Shown here: positions 10,099 through 55,660 of the stretch, piece by piece
Position numbering within the stretch: position 1 is the first letter of the stretch
How the letters are laid out: each line of letters starts with the position of its first letter
Translations under genes and position numbers: made by a program
Notes under the pieces: generated by a model
Told to the model about the DNA's origin: nothing
What the model saw: the letters and a program-made list of their open reading frames with translations, nothing else
Databases searched by the model: none
DNA from: Dipteris shenzhenensis
Lineage: Eukaryota
NCBI GenBank assembly: GCA_047967505.1
Contig: CM106538.1
Length of the DNA stretch: 64,000 nt
Strand: one strand, 5' to 3'

Positions 10099-10128
10099 GT
10101 TCACTTGCAGGTGGACATTGAGTGGGGG

Positions 10129-19104: not shown

Positions 19105-19134
19105 GTTCACTTGCGGGTGGACATTGAGGGGGGG

Positions 19135-19857
19135 TGTTAGACATCAATGCTCCACTCTCATGTAACTATGCGGGAACCAACTAACTCTACTTGTAAGTCC
19201 CCCATATGAGGAGAAGGCATTTAAGTAGCTCGGTTATCCGATAGGTCCTGGTTTGGACACCAGATGGGGGCCATGTGTGGCCTGAAGGGTGGACGGAGTT
19301 GGCAAACTACCAACTAGGCTACATGCAAGTGCGGGAAGGCATCCCATGATTGACCGCATTGAGGGTAGACGGAGCATTTCTCGAGGTAGCCCACTCTCGA
19401 GTTGCAGGGCCCGTTTGGAGTCCCAGATGATCCCGGATGGTTGTGGGCCGAACGGTAACCGTAGGTTACTTGCTCTACTTTGCGCACCGGTTCTATCGTG
19501 TGGTCGGTGCCCTATTTCAGGACCCGACCCCTAGTCGACCGTTTTGGGTAGACTGGGTCGGTCACCCAATTGGGCCCAATCGACTACGACTGGTGGCTAT
19601 ATAAGAGCAAGCCCGTGAAGCCCATTTTATCACTGGCTATAGCAACCCTGATTCCTTAGCATCCAGCCTCCGTCCTCTACTATTTCCAGCATGCCATCAA
19701 AGCTTCTCTCACAAGAGCGCACGGTTGGGAGGCAGCACCATTTATTGTATTAGTTCTACAGTAATCAAATTTTTGATTCTCCATACTATCTGGTTTTCTC
19801 TCTTGCGTATGAGATCCTGTTATTTGTTGAGCACAGATGTTGTATTGTTTTCTTACA
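19135..19857 (+). repeat. Third LTR of copia family A (3' LTR)
   Basis: TGTTAGACATCAATGCTCC...TTTTCTTACA, preceded by a G-rich PPT. Confidence 0.95.
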
Positions 19858-21005
19858 GTTAGAAGGATGTCATTATTAATAACATTGATTTCAATTATTG
19901 GGCCTGATGACCTCTCGTCTTGGTCCATTGCCACAAGTTTTATGCCAATCATCCTGCTGCATTTATAGTAAAAAGAGAAAATAAAGTTTTGAGAGGAAAT
20001 CATGTATTTAATGTTGATGGAGTTATGAGCAACCTCACAATACACATTGTTGGCCACCATTCTATCCCAACCATTTCCAAAAATTTTGGAATTGAAACTT
20101 CATCACACCCTTTTGCTCTAAAAGTTAACATTGTCTTACAAACTTTAACTAGATAATCTTGAAAAAGTTCTATAAAAATTGTAAATGGGATGAAAACATT
20201 GATTTTAACTATCTTGGTAGCAATATTTGGTTTTAGGGAATGTTGTACTTCCAAAAATAGTTTGGCTCTGTATGATTCTGTGATGCTGCCATCAGGGACT
20301 GGCCAATCAACTGTATTCCATGCTGGGAGATCTTGCTTTTTTAATAAACCGTGTGAGTGAGCATTGTACATCAATTGATAAAAGTGATCATAATAAAATA
20401 TACCCGATTTAGCCAACACTGTTGATTTTCTACCTTTGTACTGTAGCTCCCCAATAGCACCATGTAAAGCATCAAAGAATCCCAGAATGCACTCCATTGG
20501 TTGCAACTCTTTGTATGATGAGGGATATATATATCTGGACCAAAACAAAGAGACTATCTGTCATAGAAAGAAATAGTTATTTCGTTTTAAGTATTTCATT
20601 AGACAAATACACTTACAATTGGGTCTATGGTGTGGAAGATAAACATGATAATCTCGTAATATAAGTTCTTGGTGCATGTAGACATCTTATATCCGAACCT
20701 ATCTAACGCATCTTGTGCCTTCCTTTTTCACTCTAAAATCTTTCACTCTGCCCTTCCAAGAAGCCAAAAAAGTGTTAGTTGATTGTTGCTTTCTCCACTT
20801 GTTGGGTTGCATTAGAACCCCATCTCCTTTTGCCACTGCAATCCTTTTCCAACTACCGTCCCACATTTACATTATTAAAAAATTCTACACGTGAGATTAG
20901 TGAGGTAGGTCTTCATGGCAAAGAGATACTTTGTACTTCCACATCTTCGCCAGGTAGAGCGACAGACTGTTTCCTAGTGGTACTACCAAATTTTTTGGTT
21001 GCCAT
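19858..21005 (-). pseudogene. BAH-like cargo gene, paralog of 51279-52601, 3'-truncated
   Basis: FLASWKGRVKDF...HRPN|YIYPSSYKELQPMECILGFFDALHG...SGIFYYDHFY...SQNFIFSFYYKCSRM, with the same intron position as the paralog. Stops present. Confidence 0.8.
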
Positions 21006-21543
21006 CTAAAATCCTCACTCTAATACCTGCGAAGTCAAAGAAACACACACCAAAATAGTAAGAGATTAACAAAAATGAACGAAACTGCAAACAAGCGAAT
21101 AAAAGGTGAAAGGAGCTTATTGTCTTGAAAGTTTAAGAGCATCACAACAACAATGATGAAACGAGGAATGCTTGTCAAAGAGAGAATGGAATGGCTCGCC
21201 ATGGTGAAAGTAGAGAAATTCTTGTTGAAGAGAGAATGACACCAGAGAACAAGAGAAAATGGATGATTGTTTTGGGTTACCACATGAGAAGGTTTCAAAA
21301 TGGAGCTTCGTTTTGATTTTGGGTCCACATCTCTTGGTACGACAAGCGAACCGTAAAAGAATAAAAAACAAATCTTGTCATTAATGCCACACGCTTGTAA
21401 CAACATAAAGTACTATTTTCTTTTTCATATTTTTAACTTTTTTTGTGGAATTTCTACGTTACATTGGCCTTCTCCTCATTGGTTGAGAAACCTTTTTCTA
21501 AAACCCTAAAAGGCCCCAAAATAAGCTCCCTTTTTTCCTAATG
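19858..21543. mobile_element. Truncated right-end copy of the CATTAGG-TIR transposon family (compare 43292-53093)
   Basis: Ends aaggccccaaaataagctcccttttttcctaatg at 21543, the same TIR as 53060-53093. The subterminal ~21400-21543 matches ~52950-53093. Carries a homolog of the 51279-52601 gene and is cut on the left by the copia LTR. Confidence 0.88.
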
Positions 21544-34400: not shown

Positions 34401-37164
34401 TGAGCATCACATTGAAGACTTGCGACCTTTAACTGAAGCAGATCTTGAAGCTATCCCAAAGATTACATTGGAAGATTTGGAACAAGGTCTTTAGCTACTC
34501 ATTTATGCCTTGTGTATTCAGTTTCAAAATAATATGACTTTTATGGATTTTCTCGATTGCACATACTCTCATTATATTAAAGATATTAAACATTAGGTAT
34601 GATAAAATTGCGTGACATAATGACATGGGGAATGGTACTAGTGTCATTCTCCCTATGTCGGGTTATACATAAGAGGTACTATTAACATTTTATGCGACCT
34701 CATATGGAGAATGGCACTAGTGCCATTCTCTCTTTGTGGTTATGTAGAAATGGTAATACTGTTATGTTCCTTTCTTGAATCTATGTCAGTTGAAAGCATT
34801 ACAGAGATTAAAAATTGTATAGTATTAACTATGCTACCAAAGTTTTGATTTGGGTGCTTTCTACAAATCTGTTGGACCAAAGTAATACAGTATCTATGCT
34901 TTTAGATCATGCATTGTACATTTCTTTTGGGACATGGGGGGAGGCACTAGTAGTATTCTCTCCTCCCAATGAGGGTATAGAGAAAGGCACTAGTGGCATT
35001 CTCCATAACCTTATATGTAAAATGGCACTAGCACCACCTCAAGAGAAGAATAGCACTATTGCCATTCTCTCTATGAGTTCAGAGAGAAAGGTTGCACTAT
35101 TTGCATTCTCAATTGAACTTTAGAGATATTGGCACTTTTGCCATTCCCCAAAAATACAATGGAATCAGTGAACGACGATGGATAATTCTCATACTTTATT
35201 GTTATTTATTAGTTTCATATGCTTTTGTGCATCGACATTGTTGAATACACTCTAAAGAATCAAAATATTTCTATATTCCTCAACTTCCACAGGGACCAAT
35301 GATGCATGGAAGGATGTGGAGACATCAAATGTAGAGGACAACATACCACCCAAACTGGGGACTATCAATTACGCGATGGATACAGGAGGTATAGAAGAAA
35401 ACATAACCCCAAAAATGGAGAAAATTGCAAGGAATATCACGAATCCTATACTTTTAGAAGAGAACATGGATGAACGTACTGTCTCAACATTGGGGACAAA
35501 ACTAGATAATCTTATTGTTGTTGCAAACATGTATGAAATCATAGCACCTGCTGACAATTTGGATGAGTCAGAAGCCAGCAACTTCAAGGAGAATTTGGAT
35601 CTATATCCACATACAATTTCTTTGGATATGCCACGATTAACAATCATATTAGACTTGAATGGCCTGTTATTAAGTCGCTGCCTATTCAAGTCTCCAATAC
35701 ATCCGTCCATCATGCATGGCAAAAATATTTATATGGTTGTTCGTCCTGGGTGCATAGAATTTCTTAAAATCTTGCTACAAAGATTTAATGTAGGTATCTA
35801 GTCAACTGCGATGGAGCATAACGTACTTGATATGGTAGGAAAGCTGCAAAATTATGCAAATGAGAGCCTCCCTTTCTTTGTTATATGGTCTCAACAAGGA
35901 TGCTACACTTACAGTAAGACGAGGATAAATAGGCCTGACAAGGTTGGTGTTGAGGCAATGTTCAAACCCTTGGCAAAAATCTCAAAGGCATTTGGATGTG
36001 ATGCTAGAAGGACAATCCTTGTTGATGACTCCCCATACAAGGCTTGCATTAGCCCTCCATCAAATTGCATATTTCCTTCAACGTTTGATGTACAAGACAA
36101 GGATGATAATATTCTACTGAGAGAGTTGATGCCGTACTTACTACAACTCGATGAGACTAAAGATGTGCGCAGCATGATTGAGACAAATCGGTATGGACAA
36201 TTACCTATGATGGAGGGGCATAAGGATTTCAACCTTGTCCAGAAAGTAATTGATGAATGGAGGGAGGAAAATCATGCATGGTCAAGAATGGAATATAAAA
36301 CAAGAAATCTTCCTTTTGTAGATCAACTAAGAGAGAGGGATATAGGTGGTAGGGCAACCCATGGTGGTGATGGCCAGGTGCCTAAACTCAATGCATCCCA
36401 AATAAGACTTTTAAGGAATGCTCCACAACTCTCTAGCATGAATCTATGCAAGTTTCTCAATTGGCTATAGACCTAGGGTACAAAGGTCGCTATATCAAGA
36501 AATACATTGCTAAGGGCTACATAAACCGACTACAGAATGTGTATTTTTCATGAAGGTACATATGTCAAAGTGTTTTTTGATTTTATCTCGATATATATAA
36601 CTGTTGTTGTAGCTAATTGAATTTTTCTTTTGTGATGTAGATAGATATACGTTCAAATCAAGCTTGAGTAGGTACATACCAGAACGAGATCCATTTGGAC
36701 CACCAAAGTTACCTGTCCCTATCAACGAAGTGTTCTGGATAAAAAATGTGGCTTTCGAGGTGCATGAGTCAACCATTACAGGTGTGTTTGTGCATGGCTC
36801 CATCAAGAGATGGACTACTATTCTCCATTATGGAGGTGACAAGTACTCCTACAGAGACTGGAAGGAATTATGTAGAGTTCATCCAAGGCTAAAGAAGTAC
36901 TCTATCCAAGAGGACCCTACTGTCCCTATGAAGGATATGGTGCATATTGTTGGTGATGTTCAATATGGCAATGTGGCAGGATTTATTAACAGTAATAGAA
37001 ATACCAATGTAAAGCCAAATGTTTGTTATGTATTTTCCCCTGATGTTCCACCTTGGTATGACCCCATGATGAACATAGATATTGTAGAATATGGTCACAT
37101 TTGTATTGAATCCATAGATGATATACATGCAGGAGAGAAGCTATTTGCAGACTATGAGTTTTGA
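31489..37164 (+). pseudogene. Spliced multidomain gene: ParB/Srx-like + degenerate DNA-methyltransferase-like + FCP1/NIF HAD phosphatase + SET domain
   Basis: ParB-like: YRTLTLSYVRDLVKSF...YWILAGQHSIYAA...N. MTase-like: IIKECIRCYCSREHEFVVDVF..G...A....RKVI. FCP1: IILDLNGLL..VRPGCIEFL..KPL..TILVDDSPYK. SET: GNVAGFINS..KPN..DIHAGEKLFADY. A phase-1 GT-AG intron 34487-35292 joins the halves in frame; other introns at ~32847-33083 and ~36556-36640. Several stops and frameshifts. Confidence 0.72.
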
Positions 37165-38961: not shown

Positions 38962-39288
38962 AATAAGGGTTTTTTTCCAAGTAAAAGTCATATCTTTAAG
39001 AAATCTGATTTGGGAGGCCACTGAGACCCTAGCAACCATGCCTATCAATTTTATGCCAAAAAAACTCCTGCAAGCCCAAAATCCGACATCATGCAGCCAG
39101 AGCCCAGCTTTTGGTCGCACCCAGTTTCTACAGAAGCTGGGCTCTGGTCGCATGATGTTAGATTTTGGGCTTGCAGGGTTTTTTTTTGCATAAAATTGAT
39201 GGGCATGGTTGCTAGGGTCCCAGTGGTCTCCCAAATCATTTCTTAAAGATATGATTTTTACCTGTGAAAAAACCATAACCCTATTTAC
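38962..39288. repeat. Long inverted repeat / foldback (MITE-like), arms ~150 bp
   Basis: gtaaaagtcatatctttaagaaat..gatttgggag..ccctagcaaccatgcc..gcaagcccaaaatc..catcatgc..ccagagcccagctt is mirrored on the right of a short loop near 39115-39130. Confidence 0.9.
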
Positions 39289-39434
39289 ATAAATGGAGTG
39301 CGAGGGGCAAGTGGCACGGGCATGTGTCAGGGGCAAGTGGCAGGGCAAGTGACAATGGTAGGATGTCCTGGGTTTAAAATCATAACATTTGGTTGGGTTT
39401 TGTACTCTAAACTCTCAATGTTATTTTTCATTCC

Positions 39435-39596
39435 CTAAATCAAATTTGGGAGGCCACTGACACCCTAGCAGCCATGTGCATCATTTAACAGGGCTCTGGT
39501 CGCATGATGTCAAATTTAGGATTTCCAGGGGGGGTTTTGGCTTGAAAATGATGCACATGGTTGCTAGGGTGTTAGTGGCCTCCCAAATTTGATTAG
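39435..39596. repeat. Second related foldback, arms ~50 bp
   Basis: aatcaaatttgggaggccactgacaccctagcagccatgtgcatcattt ... aaatgatgcacatggttgctagggtgttagtggcctcccaaatttgatt. Confidence 0.9.
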
Positions 39597-41057
39597 AACT
39601 TTTTTTTTCCTAAATTACAAAACCATAACCCTAATTGTTTCCAAAAATTTAGGGGCAAGTGGCAGTGGCAGGATGTCGGGTTTAAAATCATAAAATTTGC
39701 TTGGGTTTCTATTCTAAACCCCAAACCCTATTTTTTATTCCCTACCAATTCAAGAAAAAGCAATGATTTTTGTTCCTAAAATGGAACCTAGAATTATACT
39801 GATGATTTTGGATCACATGATGAAGCTAGCAAAGCTACATACCTTTTCTACCTCATCGCAGAGTGTGCCAGCTACAGTGTCCAACTGGACTCCCTTTTGT
39901 GGTTGGTCTTGAACTTCATTTTAGCTTGAGGTGCTAGCTTCTTCATCTCTATCCCCGAACAATTCCCTCTTCAAATTCATGAACTACTCACATCAGACAT
40001 GTCGTACTCTGGTGTGGCATCTTCAATTGCCTTCTGTGTTAGTTGGATTGCCTCCAGATCGGTGAGGCTCGAGTCATCAAAGTGTGCAATCTCATCGATT
40101 GCTAGATTCACTAGAGCATCAAAGTCAATGACATCATCGAAAGTGTCAATTCGAGAGCCGACAGAGCACCTCGTCCTCTTGGAGACTGGTTTCTTCCATC
40201 ACTTCGGGTAAGGTGTTCCTCACCCTCAATCCTGATTGGATCAACCGAAGCAAGGTGTGGCTTGCTTGCTGCCTCATCTAGGTTATAGGTAGAGGATGGA
40301 TATGCACGAGTCAGATATGAAGATAAGATGACCTCGCTTTCAACTTACTCCTCAGCGAGGCTAATAGTATGCTCCTTAGGCTCTAAGTCTAGGTTTAGGT
40401 CATCTCCTCCACCACTTGTTGATGGACCTACTCCACCACTTGTGGATGCAGGACCCTTGGGTTGCTCGCCAATATCCTCATCAAGCTTGCTAGTCGCAAG
40501 GAGAATGGTAAGGGTTGCATCTCTCTCAATCAAATGAATTGGGGAAGATGAATCATCCCCAATGGTAATAGTGTACTCATGGAGAGAGATAGGGACATTA
40601 TCCATGGCCCTACCTAATCTCTTCTTGAAGTTAGCACTCTGGTCAAAATAGCTCAAAATATCCAATGAAACCCATTGGTGAGGGAGATAGCAATCGCGAC
40701 AGATTGCCCATGGATAAGTCTATCGAAAAATTGAAGAGAGGGATTATCAACAGGAAGAAGAGCACTCAAGTGTGACTCAAGATGGAATGCTTTGTAGAAG
40801 ATAGGATAAACCTGATCTGCAGAGGCATGGGAATCAATGGATGAAATCCACTAGTCAAAAGCCTCTCTAGGGGAAGCCATGAGTGTAGGAGGATGCTCGG
40901 GAAGATGAAAGAGGCCGGTTATGAAATGCAAGGTTACTCAAGACTGGAAAATTGAAAATGTGAAAATGACCTTAGAAGTGTACTTTATAAATGGATATTG
41001 CCCTTAAAAATGCTCTTAATTACAATATTTTTATATTTATTATTTTTTCTTTGGAAA

Positions 41058-41267
41058 GTCTCTCTCTCTCTCTCTCTCTCTCTCCCCTTAGCTATCTCCC
41101 TCTCCTCTCTCTCCCTTTCTCTTTGTCTCTCTCTTTGTCTCTCTCTCTCTCGTTGCCCTTAGCTATCTCCCTCTCTCTCTCTCTCTCTCATAGACCCACA
41201 AGGTCTTCTGAGGATGTTATTATATCTTTCTTTCTTTCCCTTCCTTTGTGTCCCTCATTGCTCTCTT

Positions 41268-41316
<49 letters not shown>

Positions 41317-41380
41317 CCCCTCCTCTCCCTTGCTCTCTCTCTGTCTCTCTATCTCTTTCCCTCCCCTTGTGTCCCTATTG

Positions 41381-41424
<44 letters not shown>

Positions 41425-41965
41425 CCTCACACCCGATGATCATCTTGTTGCCATGTTGCCCTTAGCTATCTATGTCATGGACATTGATTTTACATATACA
41501 CTTTTTGTATTTTGTTAGCGGCTCCACCCTTTGGATTAGTTGTACATGGGTTTTTTTTCAATCTCATAGTCTCTCAAAGACCTTAATTAACTTTCTTATT
41601 TTTCTCTTTCTCAACTTAGAGGTGCAAATGAATAAATGCAATCTTAACTCTCTCTCTTTTCCCATTCTCTACCTCTCTCTCTCTCTATCCCACTCTCCAT
41701 CTCTCTCTTTCTGTCCTCGTCTCCATTGTCATGGACATTGATTTCATGTATACAATTTTTGTATTTTGTTAGCGGATCCACCCTTTGGATCAGTTGTATC
41801 TGGGTTTTTCTTCAATCTCGTACTCTCAAAGACCTTAATTAACTTTCATATTTTTCTCTTTCTCAACTTAGAGGTTCAAATGAATAAATGCAATCTTAAC
41901 TCTCTCTGTCTCCCTTTGTATCCCTCCCCCTCCCTTTGTCTCTTTCTCCCTTTGTGTCCCTGACT

Positions 41966-41997
<32 letters not shown>

Positions 41998-42057
41998 GTC
42001 ATACATCTAACTTTGTCTCATGGCCAGGTGCATTATTTGTGTCGCTTATTGTACTCT

Positions 42058-42118
<61 letters not shown>
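41058..42118. repeat. (CT)n microsatellite cluster with a ~255-bp-period internal duplication
   Basis: Long ctctct runs. tgtcatggacattgattt...ctcaaagaccttaattaacttt...gaataaatgcaatcttaactctctct occurs at ~41473 and ~41727. Confidence 0.9.
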
Positions 42119-42121
<3 letters not shown>

Positions 42122-43196
42122 TGCTCTAATTGCTATCTATCTCGAGATCACACACTCTCTATCTTGCACAATATAGATATACAAATACCCACACAAATTT
42201 AAAATTACAAATATTTATCGCTTTATCATTCATAGACCATAGAGAGCCATCCATCTAGAGGTCAATACTTAATTTTAAAAATATTAATAATAAATGAAAC
42301 AACACTTTGTATTATATATGATTTCTATTCATACATGTAGCAATGCCTTATTACCAAGTGCATTGATGAAGCACTAAGGATCCAAGAAACTAGATATCAT
42401 ATGAAATACCTGCCATCATGTCTCTACTATCTCTAGAGTATGGGGAGGGCAACAATTCTTACAAAGGATACTTGTCTCATCCTTATATCTAACTTTGTGA
42501 TTATCAAGTCTAAAATAATAGTCTTGGGGAGGGCTTGCTATTGCCAACTACAATTCTTCCCTGATAAATCACATGGTCCACTTATCTTCCAATTCCAACA
42601 TTAGATCAGGATGTCCTTGCCGCAATAAATTGATACCTCGACAATAGGACTGTGAGTCCCATCACGCATATCATCATCCATTGCTTCCCATTGAAGGTTC
42701 TTCCATCTAAACCTTCTATATGTGAAAGTCATGCAGAGATTTGCCTTCCAATGCAATGCCTGCAAAATTTGGGATCTATCAATACATAGTATCCTTATCA
42801 TTTTTTATACAAACAAGAATTGTAAGATTTGCTCACTGAAATGTCACATCTGAAGTGTTCAATCGACATTGTGCTAAATCTTCAGCATGACATGTTCTTG
42901 TTGTCCATCCATTGTCAAATGGCTTAGATAGCCAGTCCATTTCTAAGCTCTTCCAAGTGTAAGTAATCTTTGTTTTCCTTAATTGCCTACAACTTTTTTA
43001 TTGTAAACCACCAATGATGTTTTTTGGGGTATTTTGAAAAAAAAACTGAAATTTTCCCTAGATTTGGGGAGCTTCTATTATAAAGAAGTCCACATGGCAT
43101 AATCTCCTTCATGGATACCATATTCCCTTACCCAAGCCTCTAATATTTTAGTAATTCTCCAAAGGGCCCCTTTTTTAGTCCAAATTTTTTGTAATG

Positions 43197-43291
43197 TGTG
43201 AGGCAAAATGCAAGGCCTGAAGGTAGCATGGCCGAGGGTTGGTTGGTACAAGAGTCAGTTGTATATATTTCTAAGTTTCTTGTTGATGCAG
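43197..43291 (+). pseudogene. CACTA/EnSpm transposase fragment, left of the insertion
   Basis: VRQNARPEGSMAEGWLVQESVVYISKFLVDA. RPEGSxAEG is the En/Spm Tnp2 signature. Confidence 0.85.
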
Positions 43292-43692
43292 CATTAGGGA
43301 AAAAGGGAACTCATTTTGGGGCCTTGTAAGAGATTCACTATTTTTTGATTTATTTCTCTCCTAAAAGACCTCAAAATAAGTAAAATACGAAAACGTGGCT
43401 CAGAACTATCAGTAAGGACTACAGAATTGTCAATTCAAAAAGGAATAAGATAATCTTTTGTCTGAATAACACGATTTTGCATTAAATATCTCCTTAGATT
43501 TTTTTTTGTTTACCAAAGATTCCGCATCTCTTTTGCCAACGTGTGCAGGCCTTTCATAAAGAATCCATCACTGAACTTGGTGATTGCAAGTTTTCAAAAT
43601 ATTCACATGGATACCACCACAGTTTCACGATTCATGTTACAAAACGACTATGAGATTGAAAAACAAACTTCGCAACCTCAGAAGCACAAAAA

Positions 43693-46427
43693 ATGGCCGA
43701 TACTAGTGAGTCACTATCTCAGAAGAAGCGATTACACCATCTTCACATCGACTTAGAAGAACAATATGCTCCAGCACAAAAAAGACGAAAGGATACGGTG
43801 CTGAATGCTCAACAGCGGGAAAATATGAGAAGAGAAGGGCTTCAACATATTGACTTATGGTGCGATGGAAGCATATATCCAAAATGTCAAGTAAAAAACT
43901 CTACACCTCCATTTGTCAATCCCACCACATTACTGAGGTTTGCCGGCAATGGACAAAATAGACTTCTTGGTTATATTTCAGCGCACTCTGCATTTGCGAA
44001 AACGTATAAAATGATGTACCTATAAGAAAAGGGGGCCAAGATGCAGGAGATAGCCATTCATGCAAAATTGGAGCAGCAGTTGCAGAATGAAATTGAGGAG
44101 CATTCAAAGAGTAAAAAAGAGTTGACAAGAGCAAGAAAGAAGAGAACCATGCTTGGAGACAGACTACGTAGCAGGAAGATTAAAAACATTGCAAATTTGA
44201 AGGCTGGGACTGGTGGATGCAAGCAACTAATTCAGGAAGCAAGGTTAGATTGAAATTTATCATTTTGTATACTCAAAAAGGCTCTCAAATGACAATATCT
44301 ATTTCATCGATTATCGCAAAACAAGAATGGAGGTGCTAAATGATATAGGCATATTGTGTTGTTACTACAGGAAATTATTGGAGCCTGCAAAAGAAAATAT
44401 GGACCCAAACCTTCTTCTTGTTAAACAAATGAAAGGATTGCTTTCTTGCGGTGTAGCAAAAGGTTTGATTGAGGAAAAAAAATACAAAACAGTCAAACGC
44501 AATGTTGTAGAGGAATTTGTATCCAATAATCAAGTTGATGGCACTATAATCCAAGAGGCTCTTGATGTTAGTGTAGTCAGCAGGAAGGGATATAGTTCGA
44601 ATTTCCATGCGATATCCTCAACTTTGAAAGATCAAAGGATTAAACGAGTTTTACTACCAAATCCAGCAACCATGTGGAGGATAAGAGGTCATTTGAATGA
44701 AAGTATAGATGAATTTATTGGGCAATATATCCATATTAAAGAAATATTTCATGGTGGTAAAGGAACCACTATGTATGATCCTTGGAATAATATATTTGTA
44801 GATCTACAACAACTTCAAAGAAGAATGGTCGAGCTTTATGGAATAACATTTGAGAAGTGCAAAGGCATTTTGAAATTTGTTATCAAACTGGATGAGTGTG
44901 AGGTTGTAAAGGAAAAGAAAATGGAAAGAGTTGCTATTACATTGATGAATGGAGCAATTGATACATCATTGACTGAAGCGAGTTTGAAGTATTTTAGTGT
45001 GCAGTCAGAGAAACACATATGGTGGTTAGGCTCGTTCCAGGTATGATCATTTTTTGTTTTATACTTGATTTTGGTCATTGTTTTCAAATCTGTTATAGTA
45101 AGACTTTTGTTTTCTATAATCTGGTAGGTGAAGATAGAAGACCATGAAACACTAGATTGGGTGTTTCACCACACAAAAATACCAAGAATAATCAAAAGAC
45201 AAGTGCAAGGCGAGAATCTCCATGTTGCAAGAAAAGGTGATTTTCAAGTAGAGTGGCACATGGCCGGGGATCTTAAAACACTTAAGTGCATGTATAACAT
45301 TAGTAAAGGAGGAAACTCAAAGTCTCCTTGTCTTTACTACAAAGAATCAACTCAAGTAATGGATTCAAAATGGTGGAAGAGAGCACCTAATAGAGATAAA
45401 TTTGACCCTGACTTCAAGGCCATTCTAGACATTCCACTATGTAATGTTCACATCTACACATTGCATGGTCTATGTCAAATTATTGAGAAATTGGTATTTT
45501 TATATATTGGATTTGCTTGGAAACTCCGTCCCAAAAATAATAGAAAGGATGCTCTTCAAGCATTGGAAAAAGTGTTATCCGATATAGGTCTGCATGGAGG
45601 AGATGTTGAAATCACAAAGGATTTTAAAAAGTCTATCAATGGCAAGGAGGTACCAATCAAGCCCTCTATTGGTGGTGTTAAGGCAAGAAGATTCTTGTCT
45701 CGACCCAAACACAGTAAGCAAGTAAGGCAAGGTAGAACAATTTTAAAGATTAATTATGGATTGTGGAAGCAAGTCCATAATGCTGTGAAAGATCATGAGG
45801 CAGATGGGGAAGCACGAAATAGGAAGGTAGAGGTGTGGAGGTCTCTTGATCAACTCTTCATGTTCTGTGACAAAGTAACATGGACAAAGAGTGATTACAA
45901 GAACTTTGAGGAGGCAATTAAACATTTTGGGAAGTCAATGAAAGACGCATGAACAGCCTGCAATATAACTCACTACATGGTAAGGTTCTGTCTTTTTCTT
46001 TTACTTAAGTGTGATCCTCTTTTTTTTATTACTTACTATGCATTCTTATGTCTTACAGCATATCATCTACAACCACCTTCCCTATTTTATCAAAAAGTAT
46101 GGATGCCCAGCAATTTGGTCTATCCAAGGCATGGAGAAGTCTCACTACATGGCACGTAATGCATTTTTCAGACACACACAACACTATGGAGGGAGTCAGA
46201 AGGCAAATAGTCTGAAGGAAGTCTTCCAATGGTTTTACCGAGGCATACTACAGAGGCTGCATGCTAAAAGAAAAGTTGCTAGCTCCAAAATCAAGCTTGC
46301 TTTTCTTCTAGCCCAAAAGCAAAGACGAAGACAAACTCTAGACAATTCAATGGCAGCAGAGAGACGTAGACAATGGAGGGAATCGAAGATATTTAGAAAC
46401 CATAAATGGACAAGTAAACATGAATAG
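43693..46427 (+). pseudogene. RAG1/Transib/Chapaev-like DDE transposase, intron-containing, disrupted
   Basis: FVIKLDE (D1); HMAGDLKTL (D2); SPCLYY (eroded CxxC); IYTLHGL; spliced ITHYM|HIIYNHLPYFIKKYGCPAIWSIQGMEKSH (HxxxxH and catalytic E). Introns at 45041-45127 and 45980-46058; in-frame TGA at 45950-45952. Confidence 0.8.
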
Positions 46428-46749
46428 GACTCATTTGTAACTTATTGGTGTTATGTCCACATGTTTTCAAACTCAATCAATAGAATTTTTTTTTGTGGAA
46501 CAACTGACTCTTGGTGTTATGCATCAAAAGTATTTCTTTTGTGAAACATATGATCTAAACGTAATACAATTTGTTCACAATTTCAATATATTGTTTGTTT
46601 AATATTTAACGACACCACTCTATCTAAATGTACAAATCATTTCATCTTCAACTTATTGTTCATTTATACAAGATCATACCAGATCAATGACTTTGTACAA
46701 ATCAGTTCAACTTTAATATAATGTTTGTGCTATATTTGATGACTAAATC

Positions 46750-47700
46750 CTATTTCTCCCAGGGCCTGCCGATCGGAACTCTCTTTTTGATCTTGATTGG
46801 AGTCTTTTTCTTCTTTATTGGCTTGATGTCGACTGTTTGTTTATCAATGCTTGCCTCTGTTGCTTGTCTGGGAGGGGTATCCTTTTCTTTAGCTGTCTCC
46901 ATCTGTTCTTCTTCTTGGATTGTGTGGCCTGATGCAATCATGGGTGGCTCTCGAAACGTTATGAGCTTGTGTTTTCCCTAGCCCTCCAGACATTTGGGCT
47001 CCTTAACACCACATGCTAATGCATACAAAAAAGTAAGCAGCCCTAGAGGCCTGCTTATCCACATAATCTCCAAATATATCTATGGCAGACAACCTCTCTA
47101 TCAAAATGATCTTTTCCTTTTGCCATGAAAGATCATGTCCACCTAAAGCCCAGGACAAACATTTTAAGAAGTAAACAATGGCTTCTCCATTGTTGCTCAA
47201 CTGCCTATGGTAAATCAAGATCTTAGCACTACCTAGATCATGAATATAATGAGCTAGGCCTGACATTTTGCGAAACCCAACCGGCCTGCTTCCACTTGAT
47301 CTCTGGAGGAATGTGTCATCCTCAATTTGTAGCTGCCACATATCAAAAGATTGGAGTGAGACAATACACAACCTACAAAACAAAGTTAAGCAGAAGACAA
47401 AGTATTTGATTTGAAGTACCTTCTCATTTTCATCAGCAACAAGCAGTTCATCTTTCCAAAGATTTATTCCTCTCCCCTCTTGTCCAGCCTCTTCTTTAGG
47501 CTTTTCTGTGTATAGTGCTGAGAGATTTATAGCTTCCTGTGTGAGCTGGAAGGCAGCTTCATATGGCTCTTGGAACTTTTCAGCCTCTTTGAAACAAAAA
47601 GTAAGGGCCTCTGTAGGATCAAAAATTGTTTCCAAAGCTAGTAGGATGGAAGAAATATATGTCAAAAAACATTGAAAACAATCTAGAATTCTGACCTTTT
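46750..47700 (-). pseudogene. Unknown cargo gene of the TIR element, convergent with the transposase
   Basis: ORFs 47003-47665 and 46750-46941 with probable short introns and a Lys-rich C-terminus. No domain recognised. Confidence 0.45.
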
Positions 47701-48944
47701 TTTTCCTTTTCCATGCTGTTGGAGTTGCACTGGTGAATCTCCTACTCTTTCACTAACTTTAACTCTGCACTCTAGGTAACCTGAAGATCTGGCAGTGGTA
47801 GTAGTCTTCAGGCAGGTTGCAGTCTGGATGGAGTGTGCTGGGTAGGAAAGGATCAGAGAGAGAAGGAAATGGAAGATGCGAGGGTCGTGGCAGGGATGAA
47901 AGATTGGGAGGTAGGGGAGGGAAGAGTGGTTGTGGAATTGATTACAAAATCATGAATGGCACAAGTTCCAAGGCATAAAGTGTACCTTTCACATGTGCCA
48001 AATTTCAAACTCCAAGAGATCTGGGTCCCATCCACACGTGTGAAAAACGACTACATTCCACATGTGTGGGATTGCCTTATTTGTATTTTGCACTTATTTG
48101 TGGTATCCTGTTTCAGCCCTCTTGCCCTCCAGTCTCTGCTCTCTTGCCTCCCTACCTCCATACTCTGCAACATCAGCATCCTGACCAGTAGCACAGGGTA
48201 CTCATCAGCAGCACAGCACATCCACAGATAGATTTCAGGTCAGTAACAATGGGTTCTTCCCTCAGTCTCTGCAATCTTCTTGCCTACCATAGAAACAATC
48301 CATCCTGCATGGAAATGCATAGAATCATTCCATATTTTATTTAGTTGTCAAGACAGAGAAATCACTGTAGGAATGCAGATCTTCAAGTGTGATATTTGCA
48401 TGTGAGGGTAAAACTATACTTATGGGTTCTTCCTTCAGTCTATGCACACTTCTTGCCTTCCATAGACTCAATCCATCCTGCATGGACATGCAAACACCTT
48501 CAAATGACTGAAGGCATATTCCAGCATGCTGCCTCATGAATTTGCAGAAAAACGCGAGGAGAAGGCCTTAGGAATTTCAAACAGCTGAAATCGCGTTTTG
48601 TTGCAAATATTGAAATGTTGCTTCATCCACCCCTGTCATTCTGGTTTTGTGACTTCCATAGCTATCCATGGCTCTACTCTTCTTGCATAAACTCCATTCA
48701 TACTGTATTTAGTTGTAAAGATAGGGAAATCACTATAGGAATGCACCATGGTGCATGTCATTTCAGGAATTTGTAGGAAAACGCGATTTGGACCTGTTAG
48801 GAATTTCAAACTCCTCGTATCGCGTTTTATTGCAAATTTTTCTATGTTGCTTCATCCACCCCTGTGATTGCCTTTTTTTTGTCAAAACATGTTCTCCATG
48901 TCTGTAATCTCTTTCCATTGCTTTGTATGCAGTGTGTTAGAGTG

Positions 48945-51078
48945 ATGGCAAGAACCAAGTCAACTACAAGGAAAGCTGGCAAAGGGCCAAGGCTTGCAGC
49001 AACAGCAGCTGGGGTAGGTACCAAGAAATTTAGTGTGCCTCCAAAGGGAAGAGCTGCACATGGCAGGAAGGGTAAGCCAATGAGCCTGCTCAAGCAAAAG
49101 GCAAGAGATTGAATCATGGTGCAGGTGTGCTAAGGGAGATCAGGAAGCAACAGAAAGCTATAGGCTTTGCAATCCCCAAGGCACCTTTAAGTTGGCACCT
49201 TGGGTTCAGGTGGAACAGAACTGCCATTCTTTCCTTACAGGAAATGGCAGAGGATTACTTGAAAAAATATTTTGAAGATGCAATGCTGGTAGCAGCCCAT
49301 GCTCACAAGGTGACTTTGATGGCCAAAGACTTCAACACTTTGTCCAGAGTGAGATGGAGGTATGACAAGCTTGTTCATCCTGTGGAATGGCAGAACATAA
49401 AGATGAGAGACATATTGTTAATTCCACCTACAAGGAAGTTAAAAGTAGATAAGGTTAAGGTTGTTGAAGTAACCCACTCAAAGAACATCAGAGGGAAGAC
49501 TGCTTATGAGGAGTCACTGAAGCAGCAAATAAAAGAAACAAAATTTGTTATAGATGTGGAGACTGGAAAGAGGGAGCTACAGATACATAGAAGGTTGTAG
49601 GAGCTGGGCCCTAATATAGTTGTCCATATTGAGGATGAATTTTTAGTGAATGATTTTGACTTAACAAAACCATGCTTGGCAACATTGGCTCATAAGAATG
49701 AGTATTGCTCAGATACTATCATTCTTGCAATGCTCTAGTAAGTGTCTATTATTTTACATTTTTTGCAAAAACAATCCTCCTTGTACCTCCTTTATACCCT
49801 ACCCTAATTATTTTTTGGTCCTATGCAGCATGATGAGAAGCTGGATTCACCCCTCTGTACAGCATACAGTCCATATTATTGATCTTGCCATTTCTTCTAA
49901 ATTAAGAGATGCAAAGGAAACTCCCATCAGTATTTCCAACTGGTTCAGACACTGCAATTTTGAAGTAATTGATGTTTTGCTACTTCCATACCATAACAGG
50001 TATGTGGGTGACTACTTCTTTTAAAATTCTTCTTTAAGATTGAGAACTCTTGTAGCCTTTGATTTCCTAATGCTTTTTCTCTTATGCAGTGACCACTGGA
50101 GTTTTGTTTCTATTGACATCCAGCAGAAGCAATGCTTTATATTCAACTCTCTTAAAAACACACACAAAGAGTTGAAATTGTAAGTGCTGTGTGTGCTTTT
50201 TGAACTTAAAACTTCATTATTTTGATATCATACTAACTAAATTATACATATTGCAGTTATATTAGAAGGCTTTTAGATGCATTGGATCACTATCCTCCCA
50301 ATGTCTCTCTTTTGGATTTCAATAGAGCCAATAAATCTAGAGGTAAAAAGTCGTTCCCTCTACTGATGTCTATTTCATGCTATGTCTTTGAACTTATTGA
50401 ATAATTTTGTTTTGTTTAGATGTTAACAATTTCTAACATATCTTTCCAACTATACAGACACCACAACAAGATGATTCAAGTAGTTGCGGATGGAGAGTGT
50501 TGATCAGTGCCAAATATCTACTTTCAAGCTATTTTGAGAAAGAACAGCCAGACCTTGTAAGAAAAACTAATTTTCATTTAGCTTGAAGATAATTCATAAT
50601 GATACAAAGTGTTCTAAATTATCATATGCCATTGCAGATGAAAGAAGATAGCTTCAGCTCAAACTATGTATATAATTTTAGAGCTCATACAATTTGCAGG
50701 TTTTTGAGCTATGCCTCCCCAAACTTATTGTACCAGCTACTGTGGAGTTGGGTGAGAGCTCTAAAGTATAAGAAGGTGTCATACACCTTGATGCCACAGA
50801 TGAAGCACCTAGTGCTGAGGAGGAGAAGCCACAGGAGCAAGCACCTAGTGCTGAGGAGGAGAAGCCACAGGAGCAAGGACCTGCTGCTGATGTTGTTGAG
50901 GAGAAGATGGAGCAGCAACAAACAGATGCTCCTTGGGCAGTGGAGGAGACAATGGAGTAGCACCAACATACTGTACAGGATAGGATGGAGCCAGCAGAAA
51001 AAAGATTCTCCAAAAAATGATGATAGGGAGATCTTGGACCATGTAGAGCAACCTCTGGATCAAGCTGTACATAAGTAG
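48945..51078 (+). pseudogene. Histone H3-like domain fused to a Ulp1-type (peptidase C48) SUMO-protease domain and an acidic tail
   Basis: MARTKSTTRKAG..., then after a frameshift GAGVLREIRKQQK...FRWNRTAILSLQEMAEDYLKKYFEDAMLVAAHAHKVTLMAKDF. Downstream spliced exons read LLLPYHN|SDHWSFVSIDIQQKQCFIFNSL and TPQQDDSSSCGWRV, ending in an E-rich tail. Confidence 0.85.
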
Positions 51079-51278
51079 AAAATGGATGTCAGAAATATGT
51101 TCTACATGTTTAACTAAACACTTATGTACAAAATCTTACTTGATTGAATACAAAACCTTTGTTTATGGAGTCTGTGTTATCTCAATTTTCAAAATTTCAA
51201 TGTCTTTGCATTTTATTGAGCTCTCTCTTCTTTTGAGCAACTGCAAAAAAGCAATATGAATCAGAGCGATAAAGTAAA

Positions 51279-52601
51279 CTAATAGCAATGCTTAATGAGA
51301 CTAGGATAAATTAGATGGTGTACCTTTTTGTTGTTGTAGATAAATAAAAAGTCGTTTGAAATAGAACCTTCTGTCTCAAACAGAATGTCATTGTGCAATT
51401 GAGCTAGGGAGCAACATTCTCTTAATGAGATCTTGACTAGCACATCACCATTCTCAACAACATCAATATCAAGAAGTTTATTTTCTGCACCAAAAGAATC
51501 TTCATCTTGATCCATTGGGACTAGTTTTGTGCCTAGCATTCGACTGCACTTGTAATAAAAAGAGAAAATAAAATTTTGTGATGCAACCATGTACTTCAGT
51601 TGCATAGAAGGTTGGACAACCTCACAAAACACTGAACTACATGTCTTCTTATCCCAACCTTTATCCAAAAATTATGGCATGCATGCCGAACTTGTTGCTT
51701 TAACTGTGAACATTGTTTTTGAAACCTTCACTGGAAAGGATTAAATAAGTCCACAAAGACTGTGAGAGGCATGCATAAAGAAATTTTTATTATCCTTGTG
51801 GCAATATTGGGCCTCAGAGCTTTTTGTACTTCTTTGAAAAGCTTGGCCCTATATGCCTCTGTAACACTAGAATGTGGGTGAGGCCAATCCACTGAATTCC
51901 ATGTCGGAAGGTCTTGTTTTATTAACACACCATGTGTGTTAGCATTGTCCAGCAACTGATAAAAATGATCAGTAAAAAATATACCCGATTGAGCTAGCTC
52001 TGTTGCACATCGACCTTGGTATTGTTGTTCTCCTATCAATCCATGCAGAACATCTATAAATCCCAGAATACAATCGATGTTTTGCCATGTCTCATACGAT
52101 GAAGGATATAAATCTGAAATAAAACAACACAAGAATGTCAATAAGCAAAGAGAGAAAGCTTCATCTTAAAAATCCATACACCTCGTAAAGAAAAAAAACA
52201 CAATAGAAAAATATACAATTAGGCCTGTGTTGCGGAGGATCTTTTGGATAGTCTTGCAAGACAACTTCTTTATGCATGTACACGTGCTGAATCAAAACTT
52301 CTTTCACGGATATCTTCCCTCTGGTGATTTTAAAATCTCGTACTCTTCCCTTCCATGATGCCAAGAAAATGTTTTTTGTCTGGGGTCTTTTTCTTTTGCT
52401 AGGTTGCATGAGCACCCATGCTCCTTTCGAAACACTAAACCTTTCCCAAGTTCCTTCCGTTTTGACTGTACTTGAATTCTCTACCAATGAAATAGAAGAA
52501 GCAGGTCGACGGGGTAAGGATGTGTGGTATAATTCTGCCTTCATAGCATTATCATCCACAGAGCGTCTTCCACAAGAACGGCCATGGTTTTTATTCACCA
52601 T
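51279..52601 (-). pseudogene. BAH-domain-like cargo gene
   Basis: FSVSKGAWVLMQ...WKGRVRDF...VLIQHVYMHKEV...(intron)..LYPSSYETWQNIDCILGFIDVL...IFFTDHFY follows the BAH pattern. A paralog lies at 19858-21005. Confidence 0.55.
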
Positions 52602-53093
52602 GGAGATTTTCTGAATCTGTAACAATAGCAAAGTAATGTAAATAAGATAACAAATTGAAGTTTCAAGAAAGAGAAAGTGGGCAGACAGACAGTTGACAAG
52701 AAATATCTTACTCTACGCCAAACAAGATCAAGGGAGTAGTTTTGGAAAAGAAGATGTTGCTGCACAATGAGGCAGTGGTGTAGAATGGTAGACCTTTCAA
52801 AGGAAAGGCGGCACAACATTTCAAAGTTCAAAGGAAGGTGGAAGCAGGAAGGCCCTTGTCAGATAAAATGTCAGTTTAGATTCTATCTTCTTGTCCAAAG
52901 ATCTTGTGAGAATAAAAAACCAATCTCCACATTAATGTAGCACGCTTGTACCTACATAAAGTATTGTTTCTTTTTTCTATTTTCTCTTATTTTCGTGAAT
53001 TTCCAACGTTACGTTGGCCCTCTATTGATTGGTTGAGAGCTTATTTTTCCAAACTGTAAAAGGCCCCAAAATGAGCTCCCTTTTTTCCTAATG

Positions 53094-54285
53094 ATAGCTC
53101 TCTCCCACGACTATGGAGAGATGATGAAGACCTAAGGATGACCTCTATTATGCCTCAAGGGAAAGGATGGAGCAAAGTAATAGACATAGAGTTGCTTAAT
53201 AATATCAACCTCTATTGCATGCTTAATAGTGATGTAATGAAAAGATGGGTGACCAGATACGAGGATGCAAAGGCAAGAAGACAAGGAAAAAGGGCCCTCT
53301 TTTGTACACACCACGGATCTCGTGTACCTACCCTCAACATCTAAGAGCACTTCCAAAGGATATTCACGTGGATTGGCTACTTGATGAAATGGAGAGAGCA
53401 GATAGAGACGAGGGGATGCATGTCACAATGGAAGAATGGGAGTACACTAGAGGATGCATGAGCAAGGTCGGTATATAGAATGTTATGCATAAGTTAGGAG
53501 CTTTCAACAATTTAGATTGCTTAATTAATTGATTTTATCTTGGTGTTGTATATTATGTTCAATGCTATATGGTGTAAGGTCGGTATATAGAATGTTATGC
53601 ATAAGTTAGGAGCTTTCAACAATTTAGATTGCTTAATTAATTGATTTTATCTTGGTATAGTGTATTATGTTCAATGCTATATGGTGTGAGGGCAAGCATT
53701 TTCGGATACAACGGATTGATGATAAGAGAAACGCACAAGATTACGGCATCATTGCTAGCTTTAAGTGAGCCAATGGGGCCATGGATGATTATTGTGGCAT
53801 AATCCAGATATTATTAAGCTTGACTTTCGACGCTTCTTTGTGTATGTTTTGGATGTCAAGTGGCTTAAGGACGTGGTGGAAAGAGGCCCTAATGCAACAA
53901 TCAAACGCCATGCAAGTGGCTTTGTAACTATTGACTCCACAAAGTTTTGGCAAAGCAAGAAGGGCACACTAGTACTACTGCAACAATGTGAACAGGTACT
54001 TTACACACATATAAAAATACTCACTTTTAAATATTTGATACCTTCGATGCAAGGAAAATAACATGATTGTATTTGTGTTTGAATTAGGTTGTCTATCAAC
54101 CAATGGAGGAAATAATAGGTGGTAGCATGTCATACCTATTACCCCAGGTTCTAAAGTGATGTATAATATATTTACTAATATGGAGCGTATGGAGAATGAT
54201 CATGTCCATGGAGCTGATGATGACCGTGATACAAGAGAGGAGGATGATCATGAGATAGGAGATACAGATATTGAGGCATTTTGCA
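53094..54285 (+). pseudogene. CACTA/EnSpm transposase C-terminal part (DUF4216-like), right of the insertion
   Basis: DSSLPRLWRDDEDLRM...; AIWCEGKHFRIQRIDDKRNAQDYG...DYCGIIQDIIKLDFRRFFVYVLDVKW...SGFVTID...LVLLQQCEQV. Includes a 112-bp tandem duplication, 53464-53575 / 53576-53687. Confidence 0.85.
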
Positions 54286-55660
54286 TGGCACAACCACGTA
54301 TCTAATGCCTTTTTCTTGCATCTCTCTACCCTTGGATCTATTCTTGATGGATGGCTAAAAATGAGCTACCTTGTCTTTTGATCTCATTCCTTGCCTTTTT
54401 CAAGGGTTTAGATTTGATCCCTCTATCCTTTGATGGTATCGCTTCGATCTACAGGTCTTGTCGATCTAGTGGTTAAGAGTGTTCTACCACAAATTTGAAT
54501 GTATCCCTTGGATTTGACATTAGATCAAGGACTACAAGTGAAAATCACAGATCTAAAATATGGATCAAAGGTCTCCCAAGCCTTAAATGCTTTTGTCAAC
54601 TTCAACATACCATTGCTGCACACTCAAAGCACTCTCATAAAATCGCTCTTTAATCTCTTGAAATTAGAAAACTTTGATTCGAGGATCTTTTGAGACCAAA
54701 TTTTTCTCGTAATAATCTTTTAACTCCTCACTACCATTTTGAGACCTAGTTTTTCCCCTAATGCTCTTTAGCTCCCTCTTACTACCACTCTTCCCCATCC
54801 TAATGTCTAATGTTGCTTTCATTTCCTCCCATATAACTCGCCCTCACTTTCCCACTTCCACCTAGAATTAATTTTAGTGACCCTTCCACTCTCCTCTTTA
54901 ATTTTTTTTTACTCAACTCTACTCCCATCCCTGCTCCGCCCATCCCTACTCCCCACATCTATGCACTACAAGGCCTAGTTTTTGGAGCAATAAAAACATA
55001 TAATTAGTTAAGTTAAAATGAGTATTTGTGGGTTATTTAAACTAATTTGCAAGCACAAACTTTAATCCACAAAATGAAGGCTAGGAAAAATCAAAGCCAC
55101 TCTTTGGCCATTGTAACCACTTAAAAAATACACTAAAGGAAGGCTTTTGGCCATTCTAGCAATTAAAAAAATACAATAAAGGCAGGTTGTTGGCCATTGT
55201 AGCGGGTGAAAAATACACCAAGGGCAGAGGTCCTTCTAAGCAATCCCTGCAGCTGCAACTGTAGTTTCATCACCTTGCTCCTAGTACAGCTGCAGAATCA
55301 AGCACGTTATTTGTTTTTTTCATCACCCTGCCTCTTGTGGCTTGCATGCTATTTGTTTTCATGAGCTTGCTTCTTGCAGCTGCAAAAAAGATCAGTCTCG
55401 ATTTCGAAATGCATGCTTTACCGTTTCGAAGTGGGTGCTATTCCGACGTTACATCATAAGGCAGCTCTCTGTAGTACGAGAGGAACATGCAGATGTTTGC
55501 AGATGAGCTTAAAATGTTGATGATGAAGGAGATTCAATTCAACGATGAACGATCAGTTGAAGATGTGCATCAGAAGACTGATCGGCGGCATAAAATGTAG
55601 ATGATGATGCACGAGATTCAATTGAACAATGAACAATCAGTCATCAGAAGAGGATTCTTG

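Follow-up and report, generated by a model that had tools for sequence, protein, structure and literature searches.

What occupies positions 43292-53093 of a 64-kb stretch of the Dipteris shenzhenensis genome (contig CM106538.1; all 64,000 nucleotides analysed here are referred to as the window), and do the genes lying beside its transposase belong to it? An earlier reading of the sequence, hereafter the original prediction, had proposed a family of terminal-repeat transposons that combines a RAG1/Transib-like transposase with its own chromatin genes, among them a histone H3/Ulp1 fusion and a BAH-like gene. We find that the interval is best read as a defunct copy of a plant DNA transposon that belongs to the CMCT clade, moves by cut-and-paste, is present in very high copy number and combines several genes, namely a transposase of RAG1 fold and stable accessory genes. 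We give this reading a probability of about 0.72. The evidence comes from the ends of the element, the predicted fold and motifs of its transposase, and the conservation and repetition of its accessory genes.

Ends of the element and its insertion site

The element is bounded by terminal inverted repeats (TIRs) at 43292..43328 (+ strand, terminus CATTAGG) and 53057..53093 (− strand, terminus CCTAATG as read on the genomic strand). The two 37-nt repeats are 92% complementary and form the longest of 22 inverted pairs found in the region, upholding at slightly greater length the 34-bp pair that had been claimed as the element's bounds. A 32-nt TIR pattern, allowing up to three mismatches, matched three times in the 64-kb window (43292, +; 53062-53093, −; 21512-21543, −) and not once in 100 shuffles. 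Because all three ends read CATTAGG inward from the terminus, the boundaries at 43292 and 53093 stand. In run X22, nine RNA reads that reach the left end switch to other flanking sequence exactly before 43292, and for the right end, contigs of the DNA runs X1 and X2 that span the empty site contain a joint ending at 53093.

The third match closes a second family member at 19902..21543 (−), diverged and truncated, which retains a homologue of the right-hand accessory gene, the subterminal region and the right TIR. The original prediction of a relative ending with the same TIR at 21543 was thus borne out by the TIR match and by subterminal and gene similarity: identity is 78% over 186 nt between 52909-53093 and 21358-21543, and 66% over 982 nt between 51502-52458 and 19915-20861. 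Common to both members is a right subterminal region (52880..53056, −) with CCAAT- and ACGT-bearing blocks, which is probably a cis element or the promoter of the adjacent gene. The second member is cut off at ~19.9 kb, where it abuts a repeat (19524-19823) resembling a long terminal repeat (LTR). An LTR-like repeat occurs three times in direct orientation, at 5532-6223, 10129-10826 and 19135-19823, with spacings of 4.6 and 9.0 kb, and 300-nt repeats are also present, with 9448-10186 matching 18450-19192 at 92%; these are probably nested or recombined LTR retrotransposons that truncated the second member.

The element split an exon of a CACTA-type (DUF4218) transposase at 43195..43291 (+), whose frame resumes at 53094. 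The split exon matched Pfam DUF4218 at 7.4e-5 and 23 bits, which is under the curated cut-off of 27 for this 32-residue piece. Its two flanks (...GATGCAG and ATAGCTC...) join in frame and have no direct repeat in common. An empty site, which is a paralogous or orthologous locus, was found in one contig of X1 and one contig of X2, where 43288 is joined to 53093 with two other letters between; the shorter side of the joint measures 92 letters in the X1 contig and 25 letters in the X2 contig. The empty site is ~93% alike, and the anchors that it shares with the filled site enclose 15 nt in both. Given this equal length of the empty site and the joined flanks, the insertion made no target duplication, or one of at most 1 base, a point that rests on a single insertion and on a ~93%-alike paralogue with a three-letter mismatch at the junction. 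Duplications read by eye at shifted boundaries (hAT-like of 8 bp, CACTA-like of 3 bp and Transib-like of 5 bp) were rejected on the shared CATTAGG and the equal-length empty site.

The transposase and its lineage

The left part of the element holds a DDE transposase pseudogene of RAG1/Transib-type fold at 43693..46427 (+), delimited by tblastn of its relatives P0151 and P0157 and assigned its fold from P0157. Its approximate exons are 43693-44250, 44430-45046, 45130-45980 and 46059-46427 (all +), and relatives match it at E 5e-157. The frame is interrupted by stops at 44023-44025 and 45950-45952, and Tyr stands in place of a conserved Cys both in the C(2)C motif and in an H-x-C-T-L-H motif. 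Position 45952 carries another letter in 9 of 9 reads of RNA run X21, 9 of 9 of X22, 36 contigs of X2 and one contig of X1; the second stop is private to the window copy. The claim that this copy is disabled stands for the transposase and the H3/Ulp1 gene, which show in-frame stops, a frameshift and substitutions at conserved residues; in the right-hand gene, the three long exons have stayed open. Elsewhere in the window, tblastn of P0151 and P0157 found no second transposase (matches at 43.7-46.4 kb only), and tblastx of the whole element matched only the second member and an Ulp1-like stretch at 22.0-22.4 kb.

Queried with a 274-codon exon, a set of 1.84 billion proteins yielded 219 representatives at E≤1e-3 (99 at ≤1e-10 and 18 at ≤1e-30), and a search among longer proteins yielded 11 relatives. 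Two of these, P0157 (898 aa) and P0158 (900 aa), look full-length and can be aligned with each of the four exons of the window copy. The relatives are without any assigned name. Conserved residues were counted in a 29-row family alignment, in the numbering of P0157 and only over rows covering each column: D411 (17/17), D508 (23/24), C528 (23/26), C531 (24/26), H586 (27/28), H591 (28/28) and E785 (8/9). D411, D508 and E785 are candidates for the catalytic D, D and E. The pair C528-x2-C531 follows the second D, and H761-x4-H766 precedes the E in spliced relatives; the window copy reads H-IIYN-H at the start of exon 4. At position 761, 14 of the 29 aligned proteins read V and diverge after I-T-H-Y-M, and the window gene has an intron at the same place. 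The V is probably a gene call running into the intron donor, so that the position of this intron would be conserved. Many database proteins of the family would therefore be gene calls run into a conserved intron, and only the ~900 aa proteins, which look transcript-derived, would be complete.

To the predicted fold of the transposase we owe its link with RAG1. An AlphaFold2 model of P0157, built from a 29-sequence alignment picked from 230 hits plus cluster members, had a mean per-residue confidence (predicted local distance difference test, pLDDT) of 70.9, with 509 of 898 residues at 70 or above. Foldseek against the PDB gave 49 matches at E≤1e-3; the matches listed among them are all RAG1, BbRAGL or HzTransib, led by 4wwx_E at 4.3e-12, and the match ranked 50 is the P element transposase at 2.7e-3. 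In VIA-align comparisons with 997 chains, model residues 243-846 were superposed on residues 459-1007 of RAG1 (6xnz_C) with a Z score of 20.8 and a root-mean-square deviation of 4.3 Å (460 of 549 residues); HzTransib (6pqx) followed at 19.3 with 413 of 480 residues aligned and BbRAGL at 18.9, and the next folds were ISCth4 (9.6), the P element (9.5) and Hermes (7.8). The core of the transposase family is thus predicted to fold like the RAG1/Transib core. The two D candidates lie 97 residues apart and the second D lies 277 residues from the E, compared with about 108 and 254 in RAG1.

Which lineage this fold belongs to is a separate matter. As set out in the available text of PMC12730594, the CMCT clade comprises CACTA, Mirage, Chapaev, Transib, Lanisha and others, is defined by C(2)C and H(3-4)H motifs that its members have in common and by 5'-CA..TG-3' termini, and is described with target duplications of 2-5 bp; according to the same text structures in this clade have been solved for RAG1 and Transib alone, and HHpred of ESTA transposases also finds RAG1. 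We place the element in this clade because of its fold, its C(2)C and H(4)H motifs and its CA..TG termini, and by the motif and terminus criteria it would be a member. Since RAG1 and Transib are the only solved CMCT structures, a best match to RAG1 cannot separate Transib from its cousins. Within the clade the element departs from typical CACTA and typical Transib elements alike, and it may be a Lanisha element.

That the family is a member of Lanisha, and its transposase family hence already described, is a distinct though minority possibility. Lanisha was proposed as a new superfamily of cut-and-paste transposons in the moss Ceratodon purpureus (Carey et al. 2021, PMC8245031) and later put in the CMCT clade (PMC12730594). 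In what is available of these two sources it is a plant lineage with C(2)C and H(3-4)H motifs that is only weakly similar to EnSpm, and the element's transposase, likewise, is without a Pfam family and widespread (219 representatives). The comparison is one of descriptions, however, and H3, Ulp1 and an absent target duplication go unmentioned in the accessible parts of those descriptions (PMC12730594, PMC8245031). Because Lanisha is a plant CMCT lineage that we could liken to the element by description only, we do not call the transposase family new.

The accessory genes as parts of the family

Beside the transposase of this CMCT element lie the genes that the original prediction took for a chromatin toolkit. 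One of them, at 48945..50560 (+), is a degraded H3-like::Ulp1 (peptidase C48) gene, recognised by Pfam Histone and Peptidase_C48 with its frames read by eye. It begins with a putative tail open reading frame (ORF) at 48945-49109 (+), which starts MARTKS (MARTKSTTRKAGKG) and lies in another frame than the histone fold at 49076-49360 (+). The fold lies within ORF 49076-49600, from which a linker (+) runs to a TAG at 49598-49600 and on in the same frame to 49735. Approximate Ulp1 exons, with GT..AG borders placed by eye, follow at 49829-49992, 50090-50176, 50258-50342 and 50458-50560 (+). ORF 49076-49600 matched Pfam Histone at 2.6e-14 (54 bits, cut-off 26.4). H3 and CENP-A chains of the PDB match the fold at 6e-12 to 1e-9, split by a 12-residue gap, and among the 173 distinct PDB sequences matching at E≤1e-3 the 60 listed are all of H3 or CENP-A type. 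The tail ORF is H3-like by eye, and phmmer returned no H3 chain for it at E≤10. On the Ulp1 side, the exon with the His box matched Pfam Peptidase_C48 at 3.7e-5 (24.1 bits) and 3.9e-4 (20.8 bits), against a cut-off of 20.7, and no Pfam match was found in the other three exons. Read by eye, the His box is SDHW, the expected Asp reads N (FNSL), and a Cys box QQDDSSSCGW lies at ~50.47 kb.

The frame 49076-49735 holds one stop in 220 codons, and the H3-like and Ulp1 parts are likely one gene, fused in one frame. Both this fusion and the exon borders throughout the element were deduced by visual inspection of reading frames and GT..AG sites. The predicted H3/Ulp1 fusion therefore held for its two modules, in a frame broken by a single stop, and the fusion itself is likely from the frames.

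A second Ulp1-like stretch lies at 22026-22383 (+), with 31% and 41% amino acid identity to the element's Ulp1 exons (joint E 8e-13); the exon that it resembles is the one before the His box. One ORF tested there had no Pfam match. The stretch belongs to something else, because it lies ~480 bp outside the right TIR of the second family member.

Downstream of the Ulp1 exons, a 36-nt tandem repeat of 2.4 copies (50803..50890, +) codes for an acidic Glu/Pro-rich stretch. RNA reads of X21 and X22 pile up at 50742-51102, with depth to 10.5 in X22, making this one of the best-covered parts of the element. Many of these reads break at 50917 and at 50991-50993 into sequence absent from the window, so transcribed relatives differ in structure at this acidic-repeat region, which separates Ulp1 from the right-hand gene.

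An accessory gene adjoins the right TIR, at 51279..52601 (−), with long open exons 52161-52601, 51728-52113 and 51279-51671; it also occurs in the second member. By tblastx, amino acid identity between the two copies is 62-65% when the coding frame is compared and drops to 35-48% in the remaining frames. Nei-Gojobori ratios of nonsynonymous to synonymous change (dN/dS) are 0.16 (378 nt) and 0.13 (138 nt), and synonymous sites approach saturation. This low dN/dS and the conservation of the coding frame indicate a selected gene of the family; the check among copies that had been proposed thus came out as purifying selection. It also has the highest RNA depth of the element. Its label is another matter: the gene called BAH-like is real, but BAH found no support in Pfam or PDB sequence searches. 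No exon of either copy matched a Pfam family (at E≤5 or E≤10), and exon 1 had no PDB sequence match. For exon 2, also without a Pfam match, all eight PDB sequence matches at E≤10 are NTF2, aligned from its residue 9 at a weak E of 0.7-1. These searches used single exons, across which a domain would be split by an intron. An AlphaFold2 model of exon 2 alone, from a two-row alignment, was unusable (mean pLDDT 40.3). None of 104 candidates among longer proteins was a relative, and the best Atlas score was 0.82, a low recognition.

Between the transposase and the H3-like gene lies a possible second gene at 46750..47949 (−), putative on the strength of its open frame, the longest stretch of which is 47003-47749 (248 codons). 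It had no match in Pfam or PDB sequences (0 hits), its best Atlas score was 0.76, and RNA depth over it is 0-1.35. Of the four intron-containing genes originally claimed, three are supported as coding (transposase, H3-like/Ulp1 and right-hand gene), and the fourth goes back to this 248-codon frame. The spacer upstream of H3/Ulp1 contains degenerate direct repeats of 62-107 nt (48249..48869, no strand assigned) and is the least repeated part of the element in X2, at a depth of 39,000-55,000 compared with 130,000-440,000 in its other parts.

Do these genes travel with the family, or were they picked up once? In X2, a DNA run of a related organism, 14,636 contigs match 42800-53600 at a likeness of at least 85%. 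Summed contig depth, which is not copy number and here comes from short contigs, is 242,000-368,000 over the transposase, 125,000-280,000 over gene 2, 266,000-271,000 over H3, 192,000-215,000 over Ulp1 and 239,000-443,000 over the right-hand gene, compared with 39,000-55,000 over the spacer at 47854-48936 and 20 over the left flank. Repetition of the cargo is clearly close to that of the transposase. The read and contig evidence throughout comes from runs X1, X2, X21 and X22; runs X3-X20, which include some labelled as metagenomes with shares of 0.05-0.18, contribute nothing to it. Separate contigs of X1, 3-8% different, cover the transposase, gene 2, H3 and right-hand gene regions. Because the right-hand gene is under purifying selection in the second member and all gene regions are about equally repeated, we infer that the cargo is a stable part of the family and not a one-copy accident, with the four genes presumably linked. 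The idea of a family with its own cargo, as opposed to a chance capture, thus gains from the right-hand gene kept in the second member and from cargo depth close to transposase depth, and falls short on linkage.

Transcription is faint. Only 270 of 10.2 million reads of X21 and 581 of 12.9 million of X22 aligned, over the transposase, 50.7-51.1 kb and the right-hand gene, and a single read per run was at least 99% alike to the window copy. Relatives are therefore weakly transcribed and the window copy is not, which is how the RNA-seq check suggested for this element turned out.

An improbable alternative is that the element is a composite, in which the H3/Ulp1 gene or the whole middle belongs to a different element that inserted into a simpler two-gene transposon or was captured by it on one occasion. 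Depth in X2 is 5- to 8-fold lower where the two halves of the element meet (47854-48936), and an X1 contig departs from the window sequence after 47644; plant transposons, moreover, often carry Ulp1 genes, and the other Ulp1-like stretch, at 22026-22383, falls outside the second member. A single capture is hard to square, however, with H3 and Ulp1 regions whose repetition is within twofold of that of the transposase, or with the separate X1 contigs, 3-8% different, for transposase, H3 and right-hand gene, and no second inverted pair of at least 20 nt and more than 86% complementarity brackets H3/Ulp1.

Several results weigh against reading 43292-53093 as a dead CMCT element with stable cargo. 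The target duplication is 0 bp (at most 1) at the one testable insertion, and CMCT elements are described with 2-5 bp. Neither phmmer of two window ORFs nor hmmsearch with the 29-sequence profile found a RAG1 or Transib chain at E≤10, and no Pfam transposase family was found in the window ORFs or in relatives P0157, P0158, P0107 and P0028 (RAG1, Transposase_21, DUF4218, DUF4216, Plavaka and KDZ were all absent). No RNA splice joint reached 3 reads, so that no exon border was confirmed. A fused H3-Ulp1 protein of more than 305 aa was absent from 328 longer candidates, which is weak evidence given that only longer proteins were covered. Among the short contigs aligned, none joined the four genes into another full-length copy, and the function proposed for every accessory gene is putative.

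Neighbouring features and comparison with known systems

The DNA around the element is rich in repeats. Long CT/TC microsatellite tracts lie at 41030-42145, just upstream of the split DUF4218 exon, and a 112-nt tandem duplication at 53464-53687. Opposed open frames at 53789-54061 (+) and 63519-63914 (−) encode a long near-identical peptide (LDFRRFFVYVLDVKW...GFVTIDSTKFWQS), for which no Pfam family was found; this suggests that the host CACTA-like element is present twice, with the copies facing opposite ways. The repeat-rich DNA some 6 kb upstream of the transposon contains three consecutive open frames at 35256-37164 (+) that match Pfam NIF phosphatase (1.6e-5 and 9e-9) and SET domain (4.1e-6), a chromatin-type gene pair that would be a host gene or the cargo of another transposon. 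Further upstream, a 4-kb block at 26820-31086 consists of interleaved direct repeats with units of ~105-300 nt in 5-11 copies each at 61-96% identity, and looks like a satellite or complex tandem array.

Taken as a CMCT transposon with stable accessory genes, the family would move as follows. The transposase would bind the TIRs and the subterminal region and then cut at the CA termini by DDE chemistry, perhaps via hairpins as in RAG and Transib, after which the element would be reinserted. The right-hand gene may encode a second factor for propagation of the element, acting in end binding or nuclear import like TNPA in CACTA, and the H3-like::Ulp1 protein might act on chromatin or on SUMO-dependent silencing.

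Several consequences would follow. A RAG1 fold in a highly repeated plant family without a Pfam family would offer an outgroup for the evolution of the RAG1/Transib/CACTA core, and the missing duplication, if true across copies, would be a variant of the integration step. The H3-like fold with a deSUMOylase and the selected third gene would be candidates for a plant case of counter-silencing by a transposon's own genes, loosely analogous to the TET/JBP genes that fungal transposons carry, and such manipulation of chromatin or SUMO, if true, could explain the very high copy number. If the family proves to be Lanisha or to match an existing Repbase entry, the finding would amount to a well-annotated example and no more. 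A bolder version, which we consider unlikely, is that this is an undescribed, superfamily-level plant branch of CMCT that integrates without target duplication and carries an H3 mimic-SUMO protease fusion and a selected third protein as fixed equipment for manipulating host chromatin or SUMO-dependent silencing.

As to novelty, the literature searched contained neither a plant element joining Transib and Ulp1 nor a DNA transposon joining an Ulp1/SUMO protease to histone H3 or a histone fold, the nearest being a fungal hAT. The claim of an undescribed combination thus holds, within that literature, for H3-like::Ulp1 together with the selected third gene and the missing duplication, but each ingredient has a precedent: Ulp1 cargo in plant elements, H3-like cargo in the fungal hAT (PMC3538342, in its available part) and plant CMCT lineages.

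Among known systems, the closest by predicted structure are RAG1, BbRAGL and HzTransib. The predicted fold of the element's transposase matches their whole core (413-481 residues aligned), with identities in the structural alignments of 12-16% and no HMMER similarity. The element lacks a RAG2-like gene and a 5-bp duplication, and its ends resemble the heptamer only in CA. The TIR ends of Transib resemble the V(D)J heptamer. Some of the alignments extend back to RAG1 395-405, presumably the nonamer-binding region. True membership of the Transib superfamily, and with it direct kinship to RAG1, is very improbable: the best structural matches do cover nearly the whole core of RAG1, BbRAGL and HzTransib, some reach back to RAG1 395-405, and plants have 39 potential Transib-like proteins, but HMMER-level similarity to RAG1 or HzTransib is absent, whereas Transib and RAG1L cores average 26% identity (PMC9435367, as far as its text is available), the one testable site has no 5-bp duplication, the terminus CATTAGG agrees with heptamer-like Transib ends only in CA, and, with no CMC-type structure solved, a RAG1 best match is expected for any CMCT transposase. 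The 'RAG1/Transib-like' description of the transposase accordingly holds for the fold (Z 18.9-20.8) and fails for Transib in the strict sense, which would call for HMMER similarity and a 5-bp duplication.

We return, then, to the reading as a CMCT element. RAG1-type recombinases are usually treated as an animal story, and the original prediction had made this a distinguishing mark of the element. The fold is borne out, but it does not distinguish the element from other plant transposons: CACTA and Lanisha belong to the same CMCT clade, and potential Transib-like proteins, 39 in the available part of the count by Tao et al. 2022 (PMC9435367), have been tallied in plants before. With the CMCT clade at large the element shares the D/C(2)C/H(4)H/E motifs, the CA..TG termini and RAG1 as best remote match; it differs in having no recognisable 2-5 bp duplication at the one site and no Pfam family of any member lineage.

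Like CACTA/EnSpm, this is a large multi-gene plant element with a transposase, an accessory gene and conserved subterminal regions. Work attributed to Hoen et al. in 2006 is said to have found Ulp1 cargo frequent in plant CACTA/EnSpm elements. In contrast to these, the element ends in CATTA and not CACTA, has no 3-bp duplication, and has no Transposase_21, DUF4218 or DUF4216 in its transposase; it is itself inserted into a CACTA-type DUF4218 exon. For the histone part the parallel is fungal: next to the transposase of a hAT element of Pyrenophora tritici-repentis lies a histone H3-like gene (PF00125), which the element carries and amplifies (Manning et al. 2013, PMC3538342, in its available part). 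Both are TIR transposons with an H3-like gene beside the transposase, but the Pyrenophora element belongs to the hAT superfamily and, as described in that part, carries its H3-like gene alone, whereas in the Dipteris element an H3-like fold that has lost 12 residues is joined to Ulp1.

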